Shown here: piece by piece, positions 13,135-63,140 of the stretch
How positions within the stretch are numbered: position 1 is the first letter of the stretch
Layout of the letters: every line of letters starts with the position of its first letter
NCBI GenBank assembly: GCA_964609615.1
Contig: CAZSRL010000002.1
Span: forward strand, 7,933-71,932
Direction of reading: 5' to 3'
Length of the DNA stretch: 64,000 nt
From: an uncultured Muribaculaceae bacterium
GTDB lineage: Bacteria; Bacillota_I; Bacilli_A; RF39; UBA660
Notes under the pieces: generated by a model
Told to the model about the DNA's origin: nothing
Database searches by the model: none
The model's input: the letters and a program-made list of their open reading frames with translations, nothing else
Program-made: the position numbers and the translations under genes

Positions 13135-13219
13135 ATTTCACTCTCCTATAAAAATTATAGCATAGTAAAAAATTAAAAAAAATAATTATTAAATAATTAT
13201 TCATTTACTTTACTATTTT

Positions 13220-14272
13220 TTAACTAGGTACCTGCAACTTTTGACCAACACTTAACAATGTAGATGTTAAATTGTTAATTCTTTTTAAAGTATCGACTGT
13301 TGTGTTATATTTATTTGCTATTTTCCAAAGACTATCTCCACTTTGTACTTTATATACTAAATAATCACTTGGTGGAGTAATATCTTTTTCAGATACCTTT
13401 AAAACATCTCCTATTTGTATTATATTACTCTTTAAATTATTTAAACTTTTTAATTTTTCAACTGTTAAGCCAAACTTATTTGCTATTTTCCAAAGACTAT
13501 CTCCACTTTGTACTTTATATACTAAATAATCACTTGGTGGAGTAATATCTTTTTCAGATACCTTTAAAACATCTCCTATTTGTATTATATTACTCTTTAA
13601 ATTATTTAAACTTTTTAATTTTTCAACTGTTAAGCCAAACTTATTTGCTATTTTCCAAAGACTATCACCTTTAACAACAGTATAATAATTAACCTTATCA
13701 ACAGGAATATAAGTAATACCTGCATAATTTGAAACTGCTTTAACTACTGCTTCAGTTAATTGTTCATAATTATTTTTTAATTGAGTAACATCATCAGAAG
13801 TACTATCTAAAAAACCATATTCAACTATTATTGATTCCGTATTAGGCGTGTCTCTTAACATAAAATAATAATCTTTACTAGGATCACTTGGTAAACGCAA
13901 TTGATAATTCTTGCGTGTGTTTTGTCCACTGTTTTCTAACTCAGAAAGTATTTTATCTGATAAATCACTAGTATTTCTCAATGCATATATTACTTCAGCA
14001 CCATCACCACCACCTGCGTTTATATGATTAGATATTACAATAATATCTTTTGTGTTTCCAAAAAAATCTAGAACTTTTTTTACACGTGCACTTGGTTCAA
14101 TCGTACTATCATCATCTCTTGTGAGTGCTACAGGGACTCCTAGTTCTCTAAATCTATTATACATATACTTACTTATTTTTAAATTTAAGTCTTTTTCTAT
14201 TATATCGTTGGCATTTGCCCCAGGATCACTACCACCATGACCCGCATCAATTACAATTCCTTTTATAGCCAT
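13220..14272 (-). CDS. N-acetylmuramoyl-L-alanine amidase (Amidase_3) with three LysM repeats, no signal peptide (CwlC-like mother-cell lysin)
   Basis: GIVIDAGHGGSDPGA amidase_3 motif; three YxVxxGDSLWKIANK LysM units. Confidence 0.85.
   Translation of the reverse strand: MAIKGIVIDAGHGGSDPGANANDIIEKDLNLKISKYMYNRFRELGVPVALTRDDDSTIEPSARVKKVLDFFGNTKDIIVISNHINAGGGDGAEVIYALRNTSDLSDKILSELENSGQNTRKNYQLRLPSDPSKDYYFMLRDTPNTESIIVEYGFLDSTSDDVTQLKNNYEQLTEAVVKAVSNYAGITYIPVDKVNYYTVVKGDSLWKIANKFGLTVEKLKSLNNLKSNIIQIGDVLKVSEKDITPPSDYLVYKVQSGDSLWKIANKFGLTVEKLKSLNNLKSNIIQIGDVLKVSEKDITPPSDYLVYKVQSGDSLWKIANKYNTTVDTLKRINNLTSTLLSVGQKLQVPS
13297..13650. repeat. perfect tandem repeat, about 165 bp x 2.2, encoding duplicated LysM unit
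   Basis: Identical DNA blocks starting at about 13313 and about 13478; protein repeat DYLVYKVQSGDSLWKIANKFGLTVEKLKSLNNLKSNIIQIGDVLKVSEKDITPPS occurs twice exactly. Confidence 0.8.
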
Positions 14273-38712: not shown

Positions 38713-39603
38713 TTACTCCTTATCAATTTCAATATTTAATATATTTAATATTCTTTCTAAATCCATTTCACTGTCATAAGGTATTTCTATGTTTTTACCA
38801 GTGATTTTAACCATTGTACCTATTTTCATTCTCATTATATGCTCAACATTTGAATATTTTCTTTCTTTAGAATAATTTCCTTCATGTTTTCTTTTAATAT
38901 TTCCTTTAGATATTAAATTTTCTAATTCTCTTACCGAAAGATTTTTATTTTTAATTTCTTTCAAATATTTAAGTATTTCTTCTTCTTCATCAAGTTTACT
39001 AAGAATTTTAGCATGAGCCATACTAATATTTCCCTTTATTATTTCTTGTTGTGCTTCTCTAGGTAGTCTCAAAAGGCCCAATGTATTAGTTATATAGCTC
39101 CTACTCTTACCAATTTTTTTACTTAGTTCTTCTTGAGTTATATCTAGTTTTTTTATTATTTTCATAAATGCTTTTGCTTCTTCAACAGCATTTAAATCTT
39201 CTCTTTGAATATTTTCAAGTAAAGCAATTTCCATCATTTGATTTTCTGAAAAATCTTTTATAATAGCAGGAATAGTTTTTTTGCCAGCAATTAAACTTGC
39301 TCTTGTTCTTCTTTCTCCAGCAACAATTTCGTAGCCTTTTATACTTTTCTTAACTATAATAGGTTGAAAAACTCCATATTCTTTTATTGATGCAGCAAGT
39401 TCGTTAAGTTTTTCTTCATCAAAATTTTGTCTTGGTTGATATGGATTACTCCTTAGTTCATTTAAATTAATATCTACTATATCTTTTGGATTAGTTTCTT
39501 CAATAATTTTCTTTTCGATATTATCCATATCTAAGGTTTGATTATTAAATAACTGTTCTAATCCGGTTCCTAAAGCTTTTCTTTTATTGTCCATTTCTTT
39601 CAA
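38713..39603 (-). CDS. parB: chromosome partitioning protein ParB/Spo0J
   Basis: ParB box IVAGERRTRAS; HTH; overlaps parA by 20 nt. Confidence 0.9.
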   Translation of the reverse strand: MKEMDNKRKALGTGLEQLFNNQTLDMDNIEKKIIEETNPKDIVDINLNELRSNPYQPRQNFDEEKLNELAASIKEYGVFQPIIVKKSIKGYEIVAGERRTRASLIAGKKTIPAIIKDFSENQMMEIALLENIQREDLNAVEEAKAFMKIIKKLDITQEELSKKIGKSRSYITNTLGLLRLPREAQQEIIKGNISMAHAKILSKLDEEEEILKYLKEIKNKNLSVRELENLISKGNIKRKHEGNYSKERKYSNVEHIMRMKIGTMVKITGKNIEIPYDSEMDLERILNILNIEIDKE

Positions 39604-40372
39604 TCACTTCCTTTGCAAGGTTAATATATGCCTCTGCCCCTCTACTTTCTGCAGAATAAGCAAGAATAGGTTCTCCATGAGATGGAGCTTCTGCTAATTT
39701 TATAAGTCTTGGAATTATTGTATTAAATACTTTTTCTTTAAAAAATTTTCTGACATCTTCTACAACTTCAAGTCCAATTAATGTTCTTCCATCAAGCATT
39801 GTTAATAATACTCCTTCAATATCTAGTTTTGGATTTAAACTATTTTGAGTCATTATTATTGTATTTAGCAATTGTGTTACACCTTCTAATGCAAAATATT
39901 CACATTGTACTGGTATTAAAACTGAATCGGATGCAGCAAGTGCGTTAGTGGTAAGTAATCCTAGCGAAGGTAAACAATCTATTAAAATATAATCAAAACT
40001 TTCTTTTATCATATCTAATTGAATTTTTAATTGTTCTCCTAATTTAAATTCAGCATCTTTATTGCCTTTTTGTACAAGTTCGATATCAGTTCCTGCTAAA
40101 TTAATCATTGCAGGAATTACATAAAGATTTTTAAATTTTGTTTTAACCACAGTATCCTTGATATCGCATTTGCCCATTATTGCATCATAAATACCTAATT
40201 CTATTTCACTTCTATTAACCCCTAAACCTGTAGATGAGTTTCCTTGTGGGTCCAAATCAACTAAAAGTACACTCTTGCCTAGATAACCTAGAGATGCACT
40301 TAAGTTTATACTGGTTGTTGTTTTTCCAACTCCGCCTTTTTGATTAACTAATGCAATTACTTTTCCCATCAT
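39584..40372 (-). CDS. parA: chromosome partitioning ATPase ParA/Soj
   Basis: Deviant Walker A NQKGGVGKTTT. Confidence 0.9.
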   Translation of the reverse strand: MMGKVIALVNQKGGVGKTTTSINLSASLGYLGKSVLLVDLDPQGNSSTGLGVNRSEIELGIYDAIMGKCDIKDTVVKTKFKNLYVIPAMINLAGTDIELVQKGNKDAEFKLGEQLKIQLDMIKESFDYILIDCLPSLGLLTTNALAASDSVLIPVQCEYFALEGVTQLLNTIIMTQNSLNPKLDIEGVLLTMLDGRTLIGLEVVEDVRKFFKEKVFNTIIPRLIKLAEAPSHGEPILAYSAESRGAEAYINLAKEVIERNGQ

Positions 40373-40467
40373 CCATACCTCACTTACATGTTTTTCAATT
40401 AATATTTTATCACAATATAAGATTTTTTTAAACTTATTTTAGTGAAAATATAAAAAAATAAAAAAGT

Positions 40468-40956
40468 TTATAAATAATAACCGTTATAAACTTTTTTATT
40501 TTCATTTATTGTAATAAAAGCGTTTTTTTCAAAAGCGTTAACTATTTCTTTTATATAAGTCACTCTTTTAGAAGTAGTTCCAATAAGTTCTTTCCCCATA
40601 ATCTTAACAACGCTCACAGAATATCCATTATTAATCAGTTCATTTACTAACTTTTTATTTTTCTTGCAAATAATGTTTACCGATACATAAATAGTAGAAT
40701 ATTTTTCTATTATAATCATCCCTATATATGTTCCAAGTGCAAATCCTAAGGAATAACTAATTACAACCACAATTGAAAAATTATTTGGATCAATTGATTC
40801 TTTGAATATTACAAGCCAAATAATAGTTTCTATAAAAGCTATTATTGTGGCAATAGATTTTTGATTCTTAACTGTTGTTATAGTTCTTAGAGTTCCTAAT
40901 GTTGTATCTATTAACCTTGTAAAGAATATAACAAAACAAAATAATATTATTTTCAT
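40468..40956 (-). CDS. UPF0316 family protein (DUF2179)
   Basis: TTLGTLRTITTVKNQKSIATIIAFIETIIWL matches UPF0316 N-terminus. Confidence 0.6.
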   Translation of the reverse strand: MKIILFCFVIFFTRLIDTTLGTLRTITTVKNQKSIATIIAFIETIIWLVIFKESIDPNNFSIVVVISYSLGFALGTYIGMIIIEKYSTIYVSVNIICKKNKKLVNELINNGYSVSVVKIMGKELIGTTSKRVTYIKEIVNAFEKNAFITINENKKVYNGYYL

Positions 40957-40984
40957 AATATTATTTTCTCACAAAATGTAAATT

Positions 40985-42841
40985 TTATTCTTTTTCAGTT
41001 TCTTTTGGAAGTTTTTTATACTTTACTAAGTAATCTATTTCTTCTTTTGTTATTGTTTCTTTTTCAAGTAAAGTCTTAGCAATCAAATCAAGTAAATCAG
41101 TATTTTCTGAAATGATTTTTTTTGTTTTTTGATAACTTTTATCAATTATTTTTCTCATTTCTTGATCTATTTCATATGCAACTTGACTTGAAAAATTTCT
41201 ACTTTTATTGTAGTCTCTTCCTAAAAAGACACTTGATTCTTGATGTTCAAATTGAATAGGTCCTAAATCACTCATTCCATATTCAGTTACCATTGCTCTT
41301 GCAATTTTAGTTGCTTTTTCAAAATCATTATGAGCTCCAGTTGTAACTTCTTTAAATTTTATTTCTTCAGCAACCCTACCTGCTAATAAACTACTTATTG
41401 TTTCTAATAATTCAGTCTTTGTAGATAACGCAAGCTTTTCTTCTTTTGGAAGCATTAAATTATATCCTCCAGCATTTCCTCTTGGAATAATAGTTATCTT
41501 TTGAACTTCATTTGCTCCTTCAAGTTTTATTCCGACAACAGCATGACCTGCTTCGTGATAAGCAACCATTTCTCTTTCAAGTTTTGTATATTTTTTACTT
41601 TTCTTAGCTGGACCCATCATTACTCTGTCATGAGCTTCATCTATTTCTGACATAGATATTGCATTTTTATTTCTACGAACTGTTAATAAGGCTGCTTCAT
41701 TTAATAAGTTTTCCAAGGCTGCTCCACTAAACCCAACAGTTCTAGTTGCTATATTACTAAGAGTTAGTCCTTCTACAAATTTTTTGTTTCTAGCATGAAC
41801 TGCCAATATTTCTTCTCTTCCTTTTTTATCTGGAAATGCAACAGTAACCTGTCTATCAAACCTTCCAGGTCTTAATAATGCAGGATCTAATACATCCGGT
41901 CTATTTGTTGCTGCAATAATTATAATTCCTTCATTTGCGCCAAATCCGTCCATTTCTGTTAGCAATTGGTTTAATGTTTGTTCTCTTTCATCATGTCCTC
42001 CACCAATACCTGATCCTCTTTGTCGTCCAACAGCATCAATTTCATCAATAAACACTAGACATGGTGCGCTTTGTTTTGCCTGTTTAAACATATCTCTAAC
42101 TCTTGATGCTCCAACACCAACAAATAATTCTACAAAATCAGAACCACTTATATAATAAAATGGAACTTTAGCTTCTCCTGCTACTGCTTTGGCAAGCAAA
42201 GTTTTACCCGTTCCAGGAGGGCCAACTAAAAGTACACCTTTTGGTATTCTTGCTCCTAGTTTAGTAAATTTTTTTGGATTTTTTAAAAAGTCAATTAATT
42301 CACTTACCTCTTCTTTTTCTTCATCTAAAGCTGCAACATCTTTAAAAGTTACTTTACCAGTTTCTTCGCTTAATTTCGCCTTACTTTTTCCAAAATCAAA
42401 TGATTGTTTATTGCCTCCGCCAAGTTTAGTAAATATATATATTGTTGCACCTATTAATAATAATAATGGCAAAACATTAATCATAAATGACCATAAAGAA
42501 CTTGATTTCGGATCACTTTTTACTTTCACATCTAAACTTTGTGATTTTGCATCTTTTAAAATATCATCTATTACTGAATCAGTTAAAGGAACAGTTAATT
42601 TAAATGATTCCTTTTTTTCATAATTCTTCATCTTTCCAGTTAATTCATAAACACCTGCAGTATTTTTTGGAGTAACTGTTAATTCCTTTATTTTTTCATC
42701 TTCCAACTCAGAAATAAAAGTATTATAGGTTAGTTCATTGACCTTTACATTTACCATATTAAATACATATAATGTGCCTAAAATTATCATAAATAGTACA
42801 ATGTAAGGTACCCAAGTATTTTTATTTGTTTTTTGTTTCAT
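40985..42841 (-). CDS. ftsH: ATP-dependent zinc metalloprotease FtsH
   Basis: AAA+ GPPGTGKT; zinc site HEAGHA; two N-terminal TM helices. Confidence 0.95.
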   Translation of the reverse strand: MKQKTNKNTWVPYIVLFMIILGTLYVFNMVNVKVNELTYNTFISELEDEKIKELTVTPKNTAGVYELTGKMKNYEKKESFKLTVPLTDSVIDDILKDAKSQSLDVKVKSDPKSSSLWSFMINVLPLLLLIGATIYIFTKLGGGNKQSFDFGKSKAKLSEETGKVTFKDVAALDEEKEEVSELIDFLKNPKKFTKLGARIPKGVLLVGPPGTGKTLLAKAVAGEAKVPFYYISGSDFVELFVGVGASRVRDMFKQAKQSAPCLVFIDEIDAVGRQRGSGIGGGHDEREQTLNQLLTEMDGFGANEGIIIIAATNRPDVLDPALLRPGRFDRQVTVAFPDKKGREEILAVHARNKKFVEGLTLSNIATRTVGFSGAALENLLNEAALLTVRRNKNAISMSEIDEAHDRVMMGPAKKSKKYTKLEREMVAYHEAGHAVVGIKLEGANEVQKITIIPRGNAGGYNLMLPKEEKLALSTKTELLETISSLLAGRVAEEIKFKEVTTGAHNDFEKATKIARAMVTEYGMSDLGPIQFEHQESSVFLGRDYNKSRNFSSQVAYEIDQEMRKIIDKSYQKTKKIISENTDLLDLIAKTLLEKETITKEEIDYLVKYKKLPKETEKE

Positions 42842-42856
42842 AAATTTCTCCTTTTC

Positions 42857-44182
42857 TTAATAATATCGTAGTATAATATCATACTCTTCATCAATACTTT
42901 TGTCAAACTTGGATTTTTTTAATCCAGGCAACCATATTATTTTTCCAGTCGCATCACAAACAATTGGCCAAATTTCTCTATCATCAAGTTTAATTTTTTC
43001 ATTTATAAATATATCATTAATCTTTTTTCTACCAATCATACCTTTAATTTCCATTTTATCACCATTATGTCTGCTTCTTACATATAATGGTAGGGTTACT
43101 TTATTACTATTAAGTCTTGTACAAAAATTATTTGTCCATTCACATGATTTAACTTTGGAAATGTTTTTAGCATTTGGCAAATTAACAATATCTATAATTT
43201 CTACCTCATATGCTTCATTTAATTCTTCTTTTACGTCGAAAGATAAAAATTCATATTCCTTTTTTACAATTACATTATTTGGTAAATGTACTTTTGCATT
43301 TGCTTTGTTTGATTTTATTAAATGAAATATCAAATCCACATGAGAATCGCTAATTATAATTAAATCGTCATTATATATTTTTTCAAGCATGTTATATAGT
43401 ATTTTAACCTGTAATAAATGATCTGTTTTATTAAACTCATCCAAATTAATTGTATGTTGTTTTACAACTTTTTTTATTACATTATTCATTTGTTTATCAA
43501 TAAATGCATTATATTCTAAAAGTGTTTCACTATATTTCAAAAATTTTTTATGGACATGTTCATCTTCTGTTTTAAAAAATGGTAATACATATTTCCTATA
43601 TCTATTTCTAGTATAAACATCTTTAAAATTAGATTGATCTGTTCGATATTCAATATTATTTTTCTTAGCATATTCTAGTATTTCAGCCTTAGTTTTTGTA
43701 ATAAGAGGTCTTATAATTTTATAGCCTTCTTTATCCACTATTTTAGAAAAACCGCTGTATCCTTTTAATGTAGAACCTCTAGCAATTCTCATCAAAATAG
43801 TTTCCATTAAATCATCTCCATGATGCGCTGTTGCTAAAAACTGAGCTCCATATTTTTTCACGACTTTTTCAAAATATTTATATCTTATTGTTCTTGCCTC
43901 ATTGTGAAAATTGTCTTCCCCATATTCTTCAATTTTATAATACTCAAAATATATTCCTTTTTCTCCACAATAATTTTCTATAAATGTTTTTTCTTCTGCG
44001 CTTTCTTTTCTTAAATTATGATTTACATGTGCACAAATCAAAAACAAATCCAATTCTTTTTTTAATTCATTAAATATATGTAACAAAACCATAGAATCTG
44101 GTCCACCAGAAATTCCTAATACAATTGTATCTTTATATTTAATACCAGTATTTTTTTTAATATATTCATAAACATCTTTCAT
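42857..44182 (-). CDS. tilS: tRNA(Ile)-lysidine synthetase TilS
   Basis: PP-loop GISGGPDSMVLL; start moved to ATG with GGAGGC RBS (MKDVYEY). Confidence 0.85.
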   Translation of the reverse strand: MKDVYEYIKKNTGIKYKDTIVLGISGGPDSMVLLHIFNELKKELDLFLICAHVNHNLRKESAEEKTFIENYCGEKGIYFEYYKIEEYGEDNFHNEARTIRYKYFEKVVKKYGAQFLATAHHGDDLMETILMRIARGSTLKGYSGFSKIVDKEGYKIIRPLITKTKAEILEYAKKNNIEYRTDQSNFKDVYTRNRYRKYVLPFFKTEDEHVHKKFLKYSETLLEYNAFIDKQMNNVIKKVVKQHTINLDEFNKTDHLLQVKILYNMLEKIYNDDLIIISDSHVDLIFHLIKSNKANAKVHLPNNVIVKKEYEFLSFDVKEELNEAYEVEIIDIVNLPNAKNISKVKSCEWTNNFCTRLNSNKVTLPLYVRSRHNGDKMEIKGMIGRKKINDIFINEKIKLDDREIWPIVCDATGKIIWLPGLKKSKFDKSIDEEYDIILRYY

Positions 44183-44259
44183 TTTAATGCCTCCTACATT
44201 ATGTAATTTTATCAAATATTTTAATAAAAGTATATAACATTAGCTTAAAAAAAGTAACC

Positions 44260-45886: not shown

Positions 45887-46671
45887 TTACCTTGGAAATC
45901 CAATATACATCATCCCCTTTGACATTAACCCTCCTATACCATCTTTTCCATATTTAGTTTTATTCAATAACTTGATTAATTCTATTTCTTCATTTCTATC
46001 ACTTAAACTTATAGTAGTTGCTATTATAGCGGTATCTAATGCATGAATATTTATTCTTTTAGGACTGGAAGCAAAAGTTGCACCTGCTTTAATTAATTCT
46101 TCATAATTGCTTTGACATGCTCCAGCTATAATTACTAGTTTATCATATGATTTTTCATACTTCCTTGCGATTTTTACAGATTGTATAAAGTATTCACTAT
46201 TTTTATAGTCATTATTTTGGTCTTTTCTTTTTTTATAATATGCATCATGTCCCGTTATAATTAATATATCAGGATTTACTTCGTTTAAATATTTGTCTAA
46301 ATTGTTTTCTAAATCTTTTTCACTTAAGCATATTCCATATGCAAGAACACTGCTTTTTTATAAAATTTCATACACCTTTTTAAATACTCATTATCGCTAT
46401 CTATGTGAAGTATTTTACCTGGCAAATAAAAATATTCGTCTCTATTATCTTTTTTTAAATCTGATACTCTTTTTAAATATTCTTCATCATTTTCTAATAT
46501 TTTTTTATTTTCTTTCTTTAAATCTTCTTTTATAGCATCAGCTTCTAATCGATAATTAATTCCTCGTAAATAATAATTATCTTCCTTTATTTTTATTACT
46601 TCAAAGACAATATCATTTTTATATGAGTTTCTTGTAACAAAATCACCTACATTCATCATAAATATCACCAA
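45887..46671 (-). pseudogene. yabG: sporulation-specific protease YabG, frameshifted at a homopolymer (T6 on plus strand at 46354-46359)
   Basis: N-terminal 115-aa ORF matches the YabG N-terminus (GDFVTRNSYKNDIVFEVI...YLPGKILHIDSDNEYLKRC); the next frame continues ...DILIITGHDAY...VIIAGACQSNYEELIKAGATFASSPKRINIHALD to the stop at 45887. Confidence 0.75.
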
Positions 46672-50488: not shown

Positions 50489-53400
50489 TTAAATGGATTT
50501 TATAATATATAATAATAATTTATTTAATAACTTTAGAAAATCTTCATCTAAATTTAATTTATTTAAAGTAATAATAATATTATTTCCTCTATATTCAAAA
50601 TTAAATTTAGAACTTAGTTTTGTTGTTTCAACAAATAAATCTTCAATTATAAGTTTTTTATATAAATCTTCTTTTAATATTAAAGAAACTTTATATTTAT
50701 CATTTTTCATAATTTTAATATTTAATTTATTTAATGAACTTTCCAAAAGTTCTTGTTCTAAATATCTTTCAAGAGTATTATCAAGACATCCAAATCTATC
50801 TTTTATTTCCCGGGAAATAATTTTATAATCATTTATATCATTAATAGCATTAATTTTATTATGCAATTCTATAATTATATCATCATCATCTGAATATGTT
50901 TTATCAATATGTGTTTGAACATCATCAATGTTAATATTATTTTCTACTTCAACTGGTTTGTTATTCAATTCTTCATTTACTAACTCCAAATATAAGTCAA
51001 TTCCAACAGAATCTATGAATCCTGCTTGTTCTTTTCCTAAAATATCCCCTGCTCCTCTTATACTCAAATCTCTCATAGAAAGTTTATATCCGCTTCCTAG
51101 TTCAGTAAACTCTTTTATAGCTTCTAATCTTTTTCTTGATAACTCATTAAGTATTTGTGATGAATTATACATGAAATATGCATATGCAATCCTATCACTT
51201 CTTCCTACCCTTCCTCTAATTTGATAAAGTTGACTTAAACCAAAATTCTGAGCATTTAATACTATTATTGTATTTGCATTTGGGATATCAACTCCATTCT
51301 CTATTATAGTTGTAGTAAGTAAAACATCAATTTTCTTTTCAACAAAATCCTTCATTGTCTGTTCAGATTGCTCTTTAGATAATTGTCCGTGAGCATAGGC
51401 AATAGTTGCATTCGGAATTAAAGCTTTTAGTTTTTTTAATACCACTTCCATACCATTAATATTATTATAAAGAACAAATGATTGGCCTTGTCTGCTTATT
51501 TCTTTTTCTAATGCCTCTTTTATTAATAATTCATTATAATTAATTACATATGTTTGAACTGGAAATCTATTTAGAGGTGCTGTTTCAATTAAGGATAAAT
51601 TTCTTACACCTACTAAAGACATTTGTAATGATCTTGGTATTGGTGTTGCAGAAACCGATAAAACATGAACAGAATTTTTTATTTTTTTAATTTTTTCTTT
51701 ATGTTCTACTCCAAATTTGTGTTCTTCATCTATAATTAACAAACCAAGTTCTTTGTATATAATTTTTTCATTAAATAATTTATGGGTACCGAATACAATA
51801 TCAGTTTTTCCTGTTTTTAAGTCATTAATTATTCTTTTCGCATCTTTTTCTGATGTGTACCTGTTTAAAAGTTCAATATTAAGGTGAAAGTTTTTAAATC
51901 TCTCCAACGCAGAATTATATTGTTGATTTGAGAGCAAAGTAGTAGGGCAAAGATAAACAACCTGTTTCCCATGCATAATTACTTTAAACATTGCCCTAAA
52001 AATTACTTCGGTTTTTCCATAACCAACATCTCCACAAAGCAATCTATCCATTGGTTTATCTGATTTTAAATCTTCTTCGATTTCCTTTATGGCTTTAATT
52101 TGGTCAATTGTTTCCACATATTCAAACTCATTGGCAAAAACGCTCTCTTCAGGAAAAACTATATTCATAGGCTCTATTTTTATTTTATTTCTTTCTTTTG
52201 AAACTTCAATTAATTGTTTAGAAATATCTGATATTTTTTTCTTAATTTTAAATTTTGTTTTTTCCCATTCCAAACTGTTTAATTTATAAATTTTCGGTTT
52301 TTTCCCTTCTTTAGAGGAATATTTATATAGGGATGTCATACTTGATACCGGTAAATATAATTTATCAGTTCCTTTATATTTAATTAATAGATAATCTTTT
52401 TTTACATTGTTTTTCTCAATTGTAACAATTCCGCCATATATTCCAATCCCATAAACTTTATGCACAACATAATCTCCAATTTTAATGTTTTTTAAATCAG
52501 TTATTTTTTTTGTGTTTTGAATTTTTGATATTGATTTAAAATTTGTATTGTTATTAATAGGAAAAATATCTTTGTCACTTATGTAGTAATTGTTATTTAC
52601 AAATAAACTGGTGTTTAAACCATGAAAAACAAATTTATAAATGTTTAAGTTAAGTTCTTTTATTTTATTTATAATTTTTATATTATTCGAAAAAAAGTAG
52701 ATTTTTTCCTTTTTTTCTTTAACAAAAGTTATAAAATTGTCAATTGAGTCTAATTTATCAACAATATTTTTAACTTCTACATTAATATTTGAATCAACAA
52801 AATAGTCAAGAACGTTCACAAAAAGCTTTTTTTCAGATGTGTGTTTTTTATAATCGTATAATTCATCATCCTCATAATATTTTTTTTGTATGTTTATATT
52901 TTCTTGTGCTTTATATATTTCATTTTCATCTTGTATTATTAAAAATGGATTTTCTAAATAATTAATAATATTAGAAAATGATTCACTGTACTCATCTTTT
53001 GCTGGTTTAATTATTATTTCTTTTTTTTCTTTAATGCTTCTTTGAGTTTCAACCTCAAATTCTCTTATTTGTTCTATTTCATCATCAAATAATTCTATTC
53101 TATATGGTATTAAAGAATTTACCGGAAAAATATCAATTACAAATCCTCTAATTGCAAATTCTCCAACTTCAGTAACTAAACTTGTTTTTTCATACCCTAT
53201 GTCAAGTAGTTTTTTTATTATTTTATCTCTTTTTATTGTTTCCTTTTGCTTTATGCTTAAATATTTTTCTCTATATTTTGTTTTGTTAGGTAATTTTTTC
53301 ATAAAACCATTTATATCTGTTATTAATATTCTTTTTTTATTATTTTCAAATTCATTTAAAAATTGTAATCTAGAAAATGTAAACTCTGGCGACACAGATA

Positions 53401-54215: not shown

Positions 54216-55054
54216 AATTCACCTTCTTTTTGTACTTGATTATATAATATATTTTTTGAAATATTATGTTCTTCTGCAACTGTTTTAATTGCATCCTTTT
54301 TTGAAAAACCTTTCTTTAAAAGATTATCTACTTCTTCAAGCAATTTGTGATAGTTTAATTGAGTTTTTTCTGGTTTTAAAATTATCACAATTTCTCCCTT
54401 AACATCTTGATATTCATTAATCGCTTCATTTATCTTTCCCCTAAATATTTCTTCGTTATACTTAGTTATTTCCCGGGAAATAATTATTTCTATATTACCA
54501 AACACTTTTTCTATGTTATTTAGCGTTTTTATAAGTCTGTGTGGTGATTCATACAAGACTATAATAGTGTCCTTCTCTTTTAATTTAATCAATTCCTTAT
54601 GATTAATACTTTCCTTATGGTTTAAAAATCCATAAAATAAAAAGTTTTTAACATCTAATCCTGATGTAGTCAGTGCAGCAACAAAAGCAGTAACTCCTGG
54701 TATTGCAACAACATTATAACCAGAATCTATTACCTCTTTGGCGCTTATTCCACCTGGATCACTTATAATCGGTGTCCCTCTATCAGTAACCAAAGCAACA
54801 TTCTTTTCATTATCTAAAAAAGAAATAATTCTTTTTGTTGCTTCTTTTTCATTAAATTTATGACATGAATATATCTTCTTTTTTATCTCATAATTATTCA
54901 ACAAAGTTTTTGTTGTTCTTGTATCTTCAGCAAAAACAACATCAACTTCCTTTAATGTTTTAATGGCTCTTAATGTTATATCATCTAGATTCCCAATAGG
55001 TGTACTTACTAAAAATAAAGTTGATTTATTATTTTTAAAACTTTTTTGTATCAT
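54212..55054 (-). CDS. rsmI: 16S rRNA (cytidine1402-2'-O)-methyltransferase RsmI
   Basis: LFLVSTPIGNLDDITLRAIKTLKEVDVVFAEDTR. Confidence 0.9.
   Translation of the reverse strand: MIQKSFKNNKSTLFLVSTPIGNLDDITLRAIKTLKEVDVVFAEDTRTTKTLLNNYEIKKKIYSCHKFNEKEATKRIISFLDNEKNVALVTDRGTPIISDPGGISAKEVIDSGYNVVAIPGVTAFVAALTTSGLDVKNFLFYGFLNHKESINHKELIKLKEKDTIIVLYESPHRLIKTLNNIEKVFGNIEIIISREITKYNEEIFRGKINEAINEYQDVKGEIVIILKPEKTQLNYHKLLEEVDNLLKKGFSKKDAIKTVAEEHNISKNILYNQVQKEGEL
54466..54485. repeat. copy of 20-bp palindrome TTATTTCCCGGGAAATAATT inside rsmI
   Basis: Exact 20-mer; encodes IIISREIT with the same rare codons. Confidence 0.8.
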
Positions 55055-59561: not shown

Positions 59562-59966
59562 TTAACTTCTAATATTTTCAAATACTTTAATTATATTTTC
59601 TTTATAACTTAAACAATAATTTGATGGTTTTTTTTCGTATATGGTGTCTTTATTCACTATTTTATCATTTTCTAAATAATAGTAAACCTTTTTTATTCTG
59701 CTTTCTTCTATCACACCTTTACACATTTCACAAGGTCTTACAATGGAATATAGTTCACACTCATCTAATCTCCAATCTTTAAGTTTCTTGTTTGCTATTT
59801 GCAACGCTATTATTTCTGCATGATCACAAATCTTTTTGCTTTTGTTTCTTTTATTATAAGCTTTCGAAACAATTTTTCCATTACACGTAACAATAGCAGC
59901 TACAGGAATTTCATTTTGTTTATATGCTTTATTTGATAATTTCATAAGTTCTTTTTCAATATTCAT
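59562..59966 (-). CDS. tadA: tRNA-specific adenosine deaminase
   Basis: HAEIIAL and PCEMC zinc motifs. Confidence 0.9.
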   Translation of the reverse strand: MNIEKELMKLSNKAYKQNEIPVAAIVTCNGKIVSKAYNKRNKSKKICDHAEIIALQIANKKLKDWRLDECELYSIVRPCEMCKGVIEESRIKKVYYYLENDKIVNKDTIYEKKPSNYCLSYKENIIKVFENIRS

Positions 59967-59985
59967 ATTTTTCTCCTAAAAAAAT

Positions 59986-60058
59986 GATGCACACATATAT
60001 TGAGTGTTATAGCTGCTATCTTCCGATTCTGACTAGTTTCCACTATATATGTTGCATC
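59986..60058 (-). ncRNA. ffs: candidate short-form signal recognition particle RNA (4.5S-like)
   Basis: Minus-strand hairpin GATGCA-CATATAT-GTG-TAG-uCAGaaucGGAAgauAGCAGCUA-CAC-ATATATG-TGCATC then U7; core GUCAG-N4-GGAA-N3-AGCAGC matches SRP RNA helix 8. Confidence 0.5.
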
Positions 60059-60104
60059 TATTTAATTATATTATTTTTTTAAAAATTTATCAACTTATAT
60101 TTAT

Positions 60105-60126
60105 AATTATTTCCCGGGAAATAATT
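60105..60126. repeat. 22-bp palindrome AATTATTTCCCGGGAAATAATT (intergenic copy 1)
   Basis: Perfect palindrome, 12 nt upstream of parS-1. Confidence 0.85.
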
Positions 60127-60137
60127 TTGTATTTTTA

Positions 60138-60155
60138 ATGTTCCACGTGGAACAT
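60138..60155. promoter_or_regulatory. parS: parS-type centromere site 1 (ATGTTCCACGTGGAACAT)
   Basis: Perfect 18-bp palindrome; fits Firmicute parS consensus TGTTNCACGTGAAACA at 15/16. Confidence 0.75.
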
Positions 60156-60252
60156 TGTTACGCTGCATTTTGATATATAATCAACAAATGTTTTTAAACT
60201 TAATATTAATATTTGAAATTTTGAAATTGTACTTTTTTTATTTAATTTTTGA

Positions 60253-60270
60253 ATGTTCCACGTGGAACAT
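60253..60270. promoter_or_regulatory. parS: parS-type site 2
   Basis: Identical 18-mer. Confidence 0.75.
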
Positions 60271-60390
60271 TCAAGTTTTTTTGTTGTTTTAAAATAAAAA
60301 AATTATTATGTAAAACAAAAAAGGTTTTTTATATTTTGACATTTCATATATTTATAAATTATTTACCAGAAAATAAGTTTAAAATAATAA

Positions 60391-60408
60391 ATGTTCCACG
60401 TGGAACAT
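60391..60408. promoter_or_regulatory. parS: parS-type site 3
   Basis: Identical 18-mer. Confidence 0.75.
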
Positions 60409-60496
60409 TTATTATATGTATCTAAGCAATAATATAAGTTTATAAGTTTTAAAAAAAATTATGATTAGAAAATATGTAACTTGTTAACGGTTTTCA

Positions 60497-60514
60497 ATGT
60501 TCCACGTGGAACAT
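60497..60514. promoter_or_regulatory. parS: parS-type site 4
   Basis: Identical 18-mer. Confidence 0.75.
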
Positions 60515-60612
60515 CGGATTATAATAAACATATAATATATTGATTATTTACCTAAATAACGCGTGTTAGACTTTATAAAGATATATATTGTATTAATTAA
60601 AGTGTGCTATTG

Positions 60613-60652
60613 TTAATATAAAATTATTTCCCGGGAAATAATTTTATATTAA
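60613..60652. repeat. 40-bp perfect palindrome centred on TTTCCCGGGAAA (intergenic copy 2)
   Basis: TTAATATAAAATTATTTCCCGGGAAATAATTTTATATTAA reads identically on both strands. Confidence 0.85.
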
Positions 60653-60656
60653 AAAA

Positions 60657-60674
60657 ATGTTCCACGTGGAACAT
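60657..60674. promoter_or_regulatory. parS: parS-type site 5, doubling as gyrA terminator hairpin
   Basis: Identical 18-mer 19 nt downstream of gyrA stop, followed by T7 on the transcribed strand. Confidence 0.75.
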
Positions 60675-60692
60675 TTTTAAAATTTATAGTTC

Positions 60693-63140
60693 TTAAATAT
60701 CATTTTCCATTTCTTCTTCTTTTTCTACAACAGAAATCGATGATACTTTTGTATTTGATTTTAAATTAATTAACTTAACTCCCTGAGTCACACGCCCCAT
60801 TGAAGAAACAGATTCCATAGAAATTCTAATTATCATTCCATTGTCTGTGATGATCATTAAATCCATATCATCTGATACAGACTTAAATCCTTTTATTTTC
60901 CCGTTTTTTTCAGTTACTTGTAACGCTTTAACACCTTTGCTACCTCTTTTAGTTTCCCTATATTCTGTAACATCAGTTTTTTTACCGTAACCATTTTCTG
61001 TAATAACTAGAATTTTTCTATTTGTATCGCTTACCTCTACTCCTATACATATATCATCTGTTAAGTTTATTCCTCTAACTCCTGTAGCGTTTCTTCCCAT
61101 TGTTCTTACTTCGCTTTCGCTAAACCTTGCCATTCTTCCGTTTGTAGAACACAATAATATTTGATCATTTTCTTTTACTTTCTTTACTGAAATCAATTCA
61201 TCATTTTCTTTTAAAGTTATTGCTATTTTACCGCTTTGTCTTATTCTATCAAAATCATCTAAGCTTGTCTTTTTAACAACGCCATTCTTTGTAGCAAATA
61301 TTAAATATTTACAATCATTTTCCCTTTCAACTGTTAAAATTGTATTTATTTTTTCGTCTTTCTCTATTTGCAATAAATTAACAATTGGCAAACCTTTTGC
61401 TGTTCTTGAAAATTCTGGTATTTCATAACCTTTTAATCTATATACTTTTCCTTTATTTGAGAAAAACAATATATAATCATGTGTTGTTAATGAAATTAAT
61501 TGTTTAACAAAGTCTTCTTCGTTTGTCGTTATTCCTTTGATTCCAATACCGCCTCTATGTTGAGTTTTATAAGTATCCGATGTAATTCTTTTAATATAAT
61601 TTTTATTTGTAATAGTAATTACAATTTCTTCTTCAGGAATTAGTGATTCATCTTCTATATTTTCAATACTTGTTAAATCTATTTTAGTTCTTCTTTCATC
61701 ACCATATTTTTCTTTAATTTCATTTAATTCCTGTATAATTATTTCTTCCACTTTTTTATCAGAAGATAATATTTCGTTCAGTTTATTAATTAATTGAAGT
61801 ATTTCTTTTGCTTCTTCATCTATTTTTTCTCTTTCTAAACCTGTTAATCTTCTTAATTTCATTTCCAAAATCGCTTCAGTTTGTAATTCAGTAAAATCAA
61901 ACTTTTGAATTAGTTTTTCTTTAGCTTCTAAATCTTTTTTTGCTTCCTTTATTATTTTAATTACTTCATCTATATTGTCTAAAGCTTTTATATAACCATC
62001 TAATATGTGTTTTCTTTTCACAGCTTTATCTAGGTCAAATTTACTTCTTCTAATGATTATTTCTTTTTGAAAGTTAATATAGTGTTCAATTATTTCTTTT
62101 AAACCTAAAGTTTTTGGTTGACCATCAACTAAAGCCAACATATTTATACCAAACGATGATTGAAGCGCAGTATGTTTAAATAAATTATTAAGTATAACAT
62201 TTGCATTTGCGTCTCTTCTTATTTCAATTAATATTCTAATTCCTGTTTTAAGGTTAGTTTCATCAACTAAGTTTGTTATTCCATCAATAACTTTATCTCT
62301 AACTAATTCAGCAATTTTTTTTATTAAAACCGCTTTATTTACTTGATAAGGCAATTCTGTTACAACGATTGTATGTTTTCCATTTGATGATTCTTCTATA
62401 TTAGCGTTTGCTCTTAGTTGAATTATTCCTTTTCCTGTTTCATATGCTTTTCTAATTCCTGAATTTCCTAGAATTAAAGCTCCTGTTGGAAAATCAGGTG
62501 CTTTTATATATTCCATTAATCCTTCAGTTGTTATTTCATGATCATTAATATATGCTACGCAACCATCTATTACTTCTCCCAAATTATGAGGAGGAATATT
62601 TGTTGCCATTCCAACTGCTATTCCTGATGTTCCATTAACTAAAATATTTGGAAATCTTGAAGGTAATACTTCCGGTTCCGTTTCTTCTCCATCAAAATTG
62701 GGAATAAAATTCACTGTATCTTTATTTAAATCTTTTACCATTTCAGTAGATATTTTGCTCATTCTTGCTTCTGTATAACGTGAAGCAGCGGCACCATCTC
62801 CATCTATTGAGCCGAAATTTCCGTGTCCTTCTACAAGTGTATACCTATAATTAAAATCTTGTGCCATTCTTACCATAGCATCATATATAGAAGAATCTCC
62901 ATGAGGGTGATATTTACCCATTACCTCTCCTACAATTCTTGCAGATTTTTTAAATTGACTACTAGGGGTTATTCCTAGCGAATTCATACCATAAATTATT
63001 CTTCTATGAATTGGTTTAAGACCATCTCTAACATCAGGTAAAGCTCTCGCCACAATAACACTCATTGAATAATCTATAAAAGATGTTTTCATTTCATTAT
63101 AAATATCTATATTAGTTATTTTATCATTTTCTTCATTCAT
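60693..63140 (-). CDS. gyrA: DNA gyrase subunit A
   Basis: Active-site AARYTEARM; [13 protein letters not shown]; six C-terminal beta-pinwheel repeats. Confidence 0.97.

Follow-up and report, generated by a model that had tools for sequence, protein, structure and literature searches.

What are five identical palindromes doing in the short gap behind gyrA, and which protein reads them? The question is raised by a 64-kb stretch of contig CAZSRL010000002.1 from an uncultured bacterium (64,000 nucleotides, hereafter the window), in which the gap between gyrA and a tadA-like deaminase gene carries five copies of a site resembling parS, the binding site of the partition protein ParB. The 624-bp stretch between gyrA and a small signal recognition particle (SRP) RNA gene in this gap is most likely the centromere of the chromosome, a multi-site ParB loading platform close to oriC. 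The complete reading combines a centromere formed by ParB on parS, interleaved Noc-binding sites (NBS) for a Noc-like ParB paralogue and a palindrome nearest to gyrA that would also serve as a terminator; we hold it with good, though not full, confidence. The parS copies, numbered from gyrA, are as follows (palindromic, no strand assigned):

60657..60674: parS copy 1, gyrA-proximal, exact ATGTTCCACGTGGAACAT; its minus strand (gyrA sense) gives the stem of a terminator-like hairpin
60497..60514: parS copy 2, exact ATGTTCCACGTGGAACAT; T-to-C in the same-species strain L085
60391..60408: parS copy 3, exact ATGTTCCACGTGGAACAT; T-to-C in the same-species strain L085
60253..60270: parS copy 4, exact ATGTTCCACGTGGAACAT; its plus-strand reading is also a terminator-like hairpin
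60138..60155: parS copy 5, SRP-RNA-proximal, exact ATGTTCCACGTGGAACAT

An exact search of the window found the 18-mer ATGTTCCACGTGGAACAT at 60138, 60253, 60391, 60497 and 60657, with start-to-start spacings of 115, 138, 106 and 160 bp, and there were no further matches in the window at up to three mismatches. Dinucleotide-preserving shuffles gave an expectation of 0.01 matches, and none of 100 shuffles reached five. The search agrees with an earlier note on this DNA, which had reported five identical copies, 106-160 bp apart, and none elsewhere in the window. The core of each site is a 16-bp palindrome, one mismatch from the consensus quoted in that note (TGTTNCACGTGAAACA) and none from TGTTNCACGTGNAACA. 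The single difference that the note described is therefore real, but its proposal that this change creates the self-complementarity of the site does not hold: TGTTTCACGTGAAACA, the commonest form of parS, is itself perfectly palindromic, so the deviation from the consensus is not the source of the symmetry. No parS was found outside the array in the window and in L091, a locus on the far side of oriC, which together cover about 85 kb around the origin.

The presumed reader of these sites and its partner are encoded in the same window:

38713..39603, minus strand: parB, with ParB_N and HTH_ParB domains, the sole ParB homologue in the window and presumed reader of parS
39584..40372, minus strand: parA, a Soj-type ATPase (Pfam AAA_31 and CbiA), overlapping the start of parB

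Both lie 20-21 kb from the array, as the earlier note had it (about 20 kb), and tblastn found no second ParB gene in the window. The best solved-structure match of the window ParB is Spo0J of Bacillus subtilis (1e-56, PDB accession no. 6SDK), and alignment to this protein showed the cytidine triphosphate (CTP)-binding motif GERRTRA as well as ENIQRE and KSRSY. At specificity position 173 the protein carries Arg (positions 173, 179, 184 and 201 follow the Caulobacter numbering of PMC7383237), a residue that is invariant in parS binders (PMC7383237). ParA gave only sub-threshold matches to the NCBIfam models of plasmid ParA proteins. The parA-parB region (window 38713-44215) is located apart from rsmG/noc, after tilS, ftsH and a DUF5698/DUF2179 gene and before mscS, abgT and ychF, on the same replichore as gyrA and about 30 kb from oriC.

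The origin side of the window is represented by L085, a contig of the same species that is 99.5% identical over 12 kb. Its gene order is rpmH, then dnaA – dnaN – comK-like – recF – gyrB – gyrA – array, with two clusters of DnaA boxes, one upstream of dnaA and the other between dnaA and dnaN. The dnaA gene and these clusters (oriC) lie 7.3-9 kb upstream of the array in L085, which places the array at that distance from the origin. GC skew is negative throughout the window, as expected of one replichore. On these sequence-level features, the parS sites are assigned to the chromosomal ParABS family.

The array does not consist of parS alone. A second perfect palindrome, ATTTCCCGGGAAAT, was identified in four copies in the window, two of them inside the array, compared with 0.17 expected from shuffles even when two mismatches are allowed. 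It is the NBS core of B. subtilis and Staphylococcus aureus (PMC7383237, PMC5540599). The sites are (palindromic, no strand assigned):

60626..60639: perfect NBS ATTTCCCGGGAAAT; the 16-bp core of parS copy 1 lies 18 bp away
60361..60374: decayed NBS ATTTACCAGAAAAT with three mismatches; the parS copy 3 core (the middle copy) lies 17 bp away
60109..60122: perfect NBS ATTTCCCGGGAAAT, 15 bp upstream of the SRP RNA's promoter-like -35 box; the parS copy 5 core lies 16 bp away
54468..54481: solitary perfect NBS within a TP_methylase-family gene
50805..50818: solitary perfect NBS within mfd

Within the array, two intact NBS and one decayed NBS are thus found 16-18 bp from a parS core, and the decayed one appears to be what is left of a third parS/NBS pair. 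Read from gyrA, the order is stop codon; parS–NBS; parS; parS–decayed NBS; parS; parS–NBS; promoter-like site; SRP RNA. One further NBS is present in L091. The NBS in the methylase gene recurs at the equivalent place in the relative L081 (8443; GyrA 85% identical) and in L085 (18640).

In Bacillus, noc sits after rsmG. Following TrmE to the far side of oriC from the array, a second ParB-family gene was found directly after rsmG (gidB) in L091 (13985-15181, with GidB at 13214-13933), and the identical 398-aa protein (P0256) is encoded on the window's own contig of 92,236 bp. Its best solved-structure matches are to Noc (1.8e-55), with Spo0J behind (1.7e-46). At the four specificity positions it possesses Q173, K179, Gly184 and R201, position 184 being Gly, Asn or Ser across nine orthologues. 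The substitutions Q173, K179, K184 and R201 convert ParB to NBS specificity (PMC7383237); the Noc-like protein and its nine orthologues therefore hold three of these four residues, including both specificity-switching positions. These proteins also share an acidic linker of about 150 residues with a conserved motif NPFQE (more fully NPFQE(P)E(I)LDF). The C-terminus of the Noc-like protein, GFVVxTEEFDFEDMYQIIIKIQKD, is likewise conserved.

Close relatives were reached through GyrA homologues (68-100% identity) and their loci of 22 kb were compared. The number of parS sites in the gyrA-tadA gap varies among them:

L084: 2
L086: 2
L081: 3
The window and L085: 5 each
L089 and L090: 5 each
L087 and L088: 9 each

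Outside this gap, no parS was found in the 22-kb loci of the relatives. The gap of every relative contains at least one perfect NBS at 11-32 bp from the first parS, with the exception of L086, where it lies 76 bp from the nearest parS. A scan of metagenome contigs for the pair ATTTCCCGGGAAAT-N8-36-TGTTNCACGTGNAACA returned at least 120 stretches, mostly from gut and rumen samples, and 80 of these loci were read. Most of them adjoin gyrA, tadA or dnaX: 61 have a GyrA match, and nearly all others match TadA and/or DnaX. Among the matches listed, their GyrA proteins are 52-68% identical to that of the window and their GC content is 19-35%. No parS/NBS array after gyrA was found among the contig matches listed from the GyrA scan, which are mostly Bacteroidota at no more than 56% identity.

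Across the related loci listed (GyrA 52-100%), copy numbers range from one to nine parS and from one to eight NBS. The matches listed comprise 86 related loci with 293 parS fitting TGTTNCACGTGNAACA and 216 NBS; 173 of the 293 parS have the form TGTTTCACGTGAAACA and 67 have that of the window. In the same loci the distance from a parS to the adjacent NBS shows peaks at 9-14 and 19-23 bp, while parS-parS gaps are mostly 80-200 bp. Set against each other, these distances indicate that the parS/NBS pair, rather than parS alone, is the conserved and amplifiable unit in this clade. The peaks also hint at helical phasing, in a set of loci that are phylogenetically dependent and in which one pair per locus was picked by the search pattern itself. 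A true tandem array was observed on one metagenome contig, downstream of gyrA/tadA (L163, 1-320), with at least four units of 72 bp, each consisting of parS, 12 bp, NBS and 30 bp. In L081 a 68-aa open reading frame (ORF) with no Pfam match lies within the parS/NBS array (2696-2902); it is absent from the window.

The comparison of gyrA 3′ flanks in relatives, named as a check in the earlier note, thus shows the array conserved in position across dozens of related genomes. Together with the fit to the consensus, the ParB/ParA pair, the distance to oriC and the lack of further sites in about 85 kb, this conserved location supports the note's proposal that the parS copies may form an origin-near ParB loading platform. 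Its core account of the parS part of the array holds at the level of sequence; it was incomplete in that the mixed nature of the array, the SRP RNA gene and the Noc-like paralogue across oriC had been missed.

Based on the known workings of the ParB family, the locus may operate as follows. ParB, whose gene lies 20 kb downstream, would nucleate as dimers on the five parS palindromes, bind CTP, close as clamps and slide to the flanking DNA. A single partition complex would thereby form 7-9 kb from oriC, to be moved by ParA, and would presumably load SMC. Sites placed side by side would raise the rate of clamp loading and leave any single site dispensable. One parS suffices in Pseudomonas aeruginosa (PMC7022226) and Corynebacterium glutamicum (PMC7083940), and the proposed redundancy fits both this and the substitutions in L085, which are possible assembly errors. 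The NBS in the array are likely targets of the paralogue encoded beside rsmG, and most likely load it next to ParB; in that case, two clamp-loaders that are paralogues would be loading next to each other. The palindrome nearest to gyrA would, in addition, provide the hairpin of the gyrBA intrinsic terminator.

Several points weigh against this reading. ParB binding at the array is deduced from sequence for the whole, uncultured clade, as is the likely role of the NBS as DNA target of the Noc-like protein. Position 201 of the window ParB is Ala (SMAHAK, residues about 199-204), a position that is almost always Gly in ParB orthologues; Gly is preferred there for parS binding, and the listed tolerated alternatives are Cys, Ser and Thr, with Ala not among them (PMC7383237). 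The parS search spans about 85 kb of this genome, and further sites may exist elsewhere. In L085, two of the five parS sites (12630 and 12736, corresponding to window positions 60497 and 60391) each carry a single T-to-C change, more than the background rate would lead one to expect between strains that are 99.5% identical; this reflects either weak constraint on single sites or errors in an assembly with contig coverage of only about 7x.

The remaining points concern the paralogue. It carries Gly and not Lys at position 184, and it scores 274.2 bits on the NCBIfam Noc model TIGR04285, below the cut-off of 315 (the window ParB scores 233.4). Neither an N-terminal peptide nor an N-terminal amphipathic helix was found in the protein, and its orthologues lack the helix too; known Noc needs this membrane helix for function (PMC7333895). 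The protein begins with MEEQNKIIDISIEDIVPNRFQPR; its start codon has a good Shine-Dalgarno sequence before it and an in-frame stop 27 nt upstream, and the nine orthologues (381-441 aa) have the same short N-terminus, starting directly at the fold of the ParB N-domain. Because it has no membrane helix and scores below the curated cut-off, the paralogue is not classified as Noc; it probably reads DNA in the manner of Noc. The missing helix argues against a direct transfer of the nucleoid-occlusion mechanism of B. subtilis.

A more specific proposal, which we put forward tentatively and consider rather unlikely as it stands, is that the NBS-reading paralogue is a co-factor of the centromere and not a membrane-tethering nucleoid-occlusion factor, the paired sites loading two CTP clamps at a fixed locus. 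The helix-less protein with its long linker could then be an intermediate between ParB and Noc, in which specificity has switched and membrane binding has not yet been gained, or a re-purposed Noc. If this were true, the clade would offer a natural case of ParB and Noc acting on shared DNA.

The neighbourhood of the array bears on how else the palindromes could be used. The following features border or share the gap:

60693..63140, minus strand: gyrA (Pfam DNA_topoisoIV and GyrA C-terminal domain), its 3′ end adjoining the array
60065..60093, minus strand: promoter-like site for the SRP RNA/tadA/dnaX unit, TTGATA-17 nt-TATAAT, predicted from its fit to the consensus (11 of 12 positions)
59971..60068, minus strand: small SRP RNA (Rfam RF00169; 58.7 bits, gathering score 40)
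59562..59966, minus strand: tadA-like deaminase, the ORF that bounds the gap

The gap between the two ORFs measures 726 bp, the size given in the earlier note; it is not empty, as it includes the SRP RNA, and its non-genic remainder is 60069..60692 (624 bp). The SRP RNA precedes tadA and stops just 4 nt short of its start codon, which places the ribosome-binding site of tadA inside the Rfam match. Further from the array, a ComK-family gene was observed between dnaN and recF in every relative examined (L085 6451-6912; also L084 and L086-L090). Sporulation-associated genes were also found in this lineage, which is labelled 'Mollicutes bacterium': a fragment of the YabG peptidase (115 aa only of a 280-position model), BofA and SpoIIR, with loci at window 46324-46671, L085 16199-16384 and L091 19597-20112.

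In gyrA sense, parS copy 1, whose 18-mer starts 18 nt past the gyrA stop codon (not 19 nt, as earlier stated), forms a predicted stem of 11 bp (-12.9 kcal/mol, z = -4.45) followed by the U-run UUUUUUU. Among the matches listed, the gyrA stop was located in 61 loci, and in 53 of them no more than 40 nt separate it from the first palindrome. Over the 61 loci the median distance is 15 nt, and the first palindrome is a parS in 42 and an NBS in 19. In many cases it overlaps the gyrA TAA, and a T-rich tail often follows. The hairpin with its U-run and the conserved nearness to the gyrA stop support a second role of this palindrome as predicted intrinsic terminator of gyrBA, as the earlier note had suggested from the T-run.

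The same observations could be taken further, to the view that the palindromes are mainly RNA-level terminator or insulator hairpins separating gyrBA from the SRP RNA/tadA/dnaX unit, with only an incidental likeness to parS. All five copies do fold as stable hairpins (-9 to -15 kcal/mol), T-runs follow copy 1 and, in its plus-strand reading, copy 4, and the first palindrome is close to the gyrA stop in most relatives. Hairpins would tolerate compensatory changes, yet the 16 bp keep the parS consensus at a GyrA identity of 52-68%; one terminator would be enough, yet five to nine copies are present, and copies 2, 3 and 5 have no U-run in gyrA sense. Moreover, the second palindrome has precisely the NBS sequence, and the genome carries a gene for the protein that likely reads it. 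This explanation is very improbable. Not quite so improbable, but still poorly placed, is the idea that the sites are operators through which ParB and/or the Noc-like protein chiefly regulate the SRP RNA/tadA/dnaX unit or gyrBA and not segregation. An NBS and a parS are located 15-45 bp upstream of the promoter-like site 60065..60093, and ParB of P. aeruginosa represses nearby promoters at the intergenic sites parS3 and parS4 (PMC7022226). Against this, no other parS was found over about 85 kb around oriC, a complete ParA/ParB pair accompanies the sites, the variation from one to nine copies among relatives suits a loading platform better, and transcriptional effects of ParB in other species are by-products of the partition complex.

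There is hardly any probability that the repeats belong to a dispersed family of extragenic palindromes (resembling repetitive extragenic palindromic (REP) sequences or miniature inverted-repeat transposable elements) or are what remains of the partition locus of an integrated plasmid or phage. Such an origin would account for short perfect palindromes repeated in AT-rich intergenic DNA and for the 68-aa ORF in the array of L081. It is contradicted by the confinement of the copies to the gap, with none beyond it in the 64 kb or in the 22-kb locus of any relative, on which ground a REP-like family was rejected; by the fixed place between two core housekeeping genes over a broad clade; by the lack of mobile-element genes nearby; and by a window array without conserved flanks or tandem periodicity. 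The spacers of the array are unrelated, repeated sequence being limited to the palindromes and a few flanking bases, and Tandem Repeats Finder (TRF) found no periodicity or array in 59950-60750, so a tandem-repeat origin of the window array was also rejected. A cluster of DnaA boxes was dismissed as well, as the gyrA-tadA gap holds no TTATCCACA box at up to one mismatch. Overall the rival explanations fare poorly, since a strict protein-recognition sequence, a variable copy number and the lack of copies elsewhere contradict them.

The centromere proposed here most closely resembles the Spo0J-Soj parS system of B. subtilis. In both, the 16-bp consensus is the same, ParB is Spo0J-like with GERRxRA and a ParA-stimulating peptide region at its N-terminus, parA immediately precedes parB, and the sites are origin-proximal. 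In B. subtilis about 10 parS are spread over hundreds of kb, mostly within genes. In the window, by contrast, all detectable parS lie in one intergenic stretch of 0.5 kb, and parAB is detached from rsmG/noc. Ten bound parS are reported for B. subtilis (PMC7022226), 22 for Myxococcus xanthus in a 3-kb cluster, or about one per 140 bp (PMC3899335), and 10 for C. glutamicum in 35 kb (PMC7083940). The earlier note's remark that such density is unusual for chromosomes was therefore overstated, the M. xanthus cluster being equally dense (PMC3899335). Like the window array, the clusters of M. xanthus, C. glutamicum and P. aeruginosa (parS1-4) consist of many near-identical parS near the origin; unlike it, they contain parS only and occur in hosts without Noc, whereas the window array pairs parS with NBS and is fixed at the 3′ end of gyrA.

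Two further comparisons concern plasmid centromeres and Noc. The sopC centromere of the F plasmid consists of 12 tandem repeats of 43 bp. Plasmid arrays of this type share with the window the presence of many ParB sites in less than 1 kb, and the array of L163, with its 72-bp unit, is truly tandem; the window array differs in its unrelated spacers, its lack of TRF periodicity and its chromosomal-type ParB. The Noc-NBS systems of B. subtilis and S. aureus are alike in having the identical NBS core ATTTCCCGGGAAAT, a paralogue after rsmG whose closest structure is Noc, the residues Q173, K179 and R201, and solitary intragenic NBS (PMC7383237, PMC5540599). In contrast, the protein of the window lineage has no membrane helix, a long acidic linker and a score below the NCBIfam Noc cut-off. 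A limited literature search found no description of a mixed parS/NBS array, of its fixed location at the 3′ end of gyrA or of a helix-less Noc-like protein.

The number of parS sites varies from one to more than 20 between bacteria, and the reasons for this variation and for their clustering are listed as open (PMC7333895). With one to nine parS and one to eight NBS at one fixed locus, a tandem unit included, the clade provides a natural series for studying the growth and decay of a centromere. The tight parS/NBS pairing and the helix-less Noc-like protein with its NBS-specificity residues bear on the origin of Noc from ParB and on whether the two paralogues cooperate on DNA at all. For these uncultured, low-GC gut and rumen genomes, the 3′ flank of gyrA would serve as a ready marker of the centromere.

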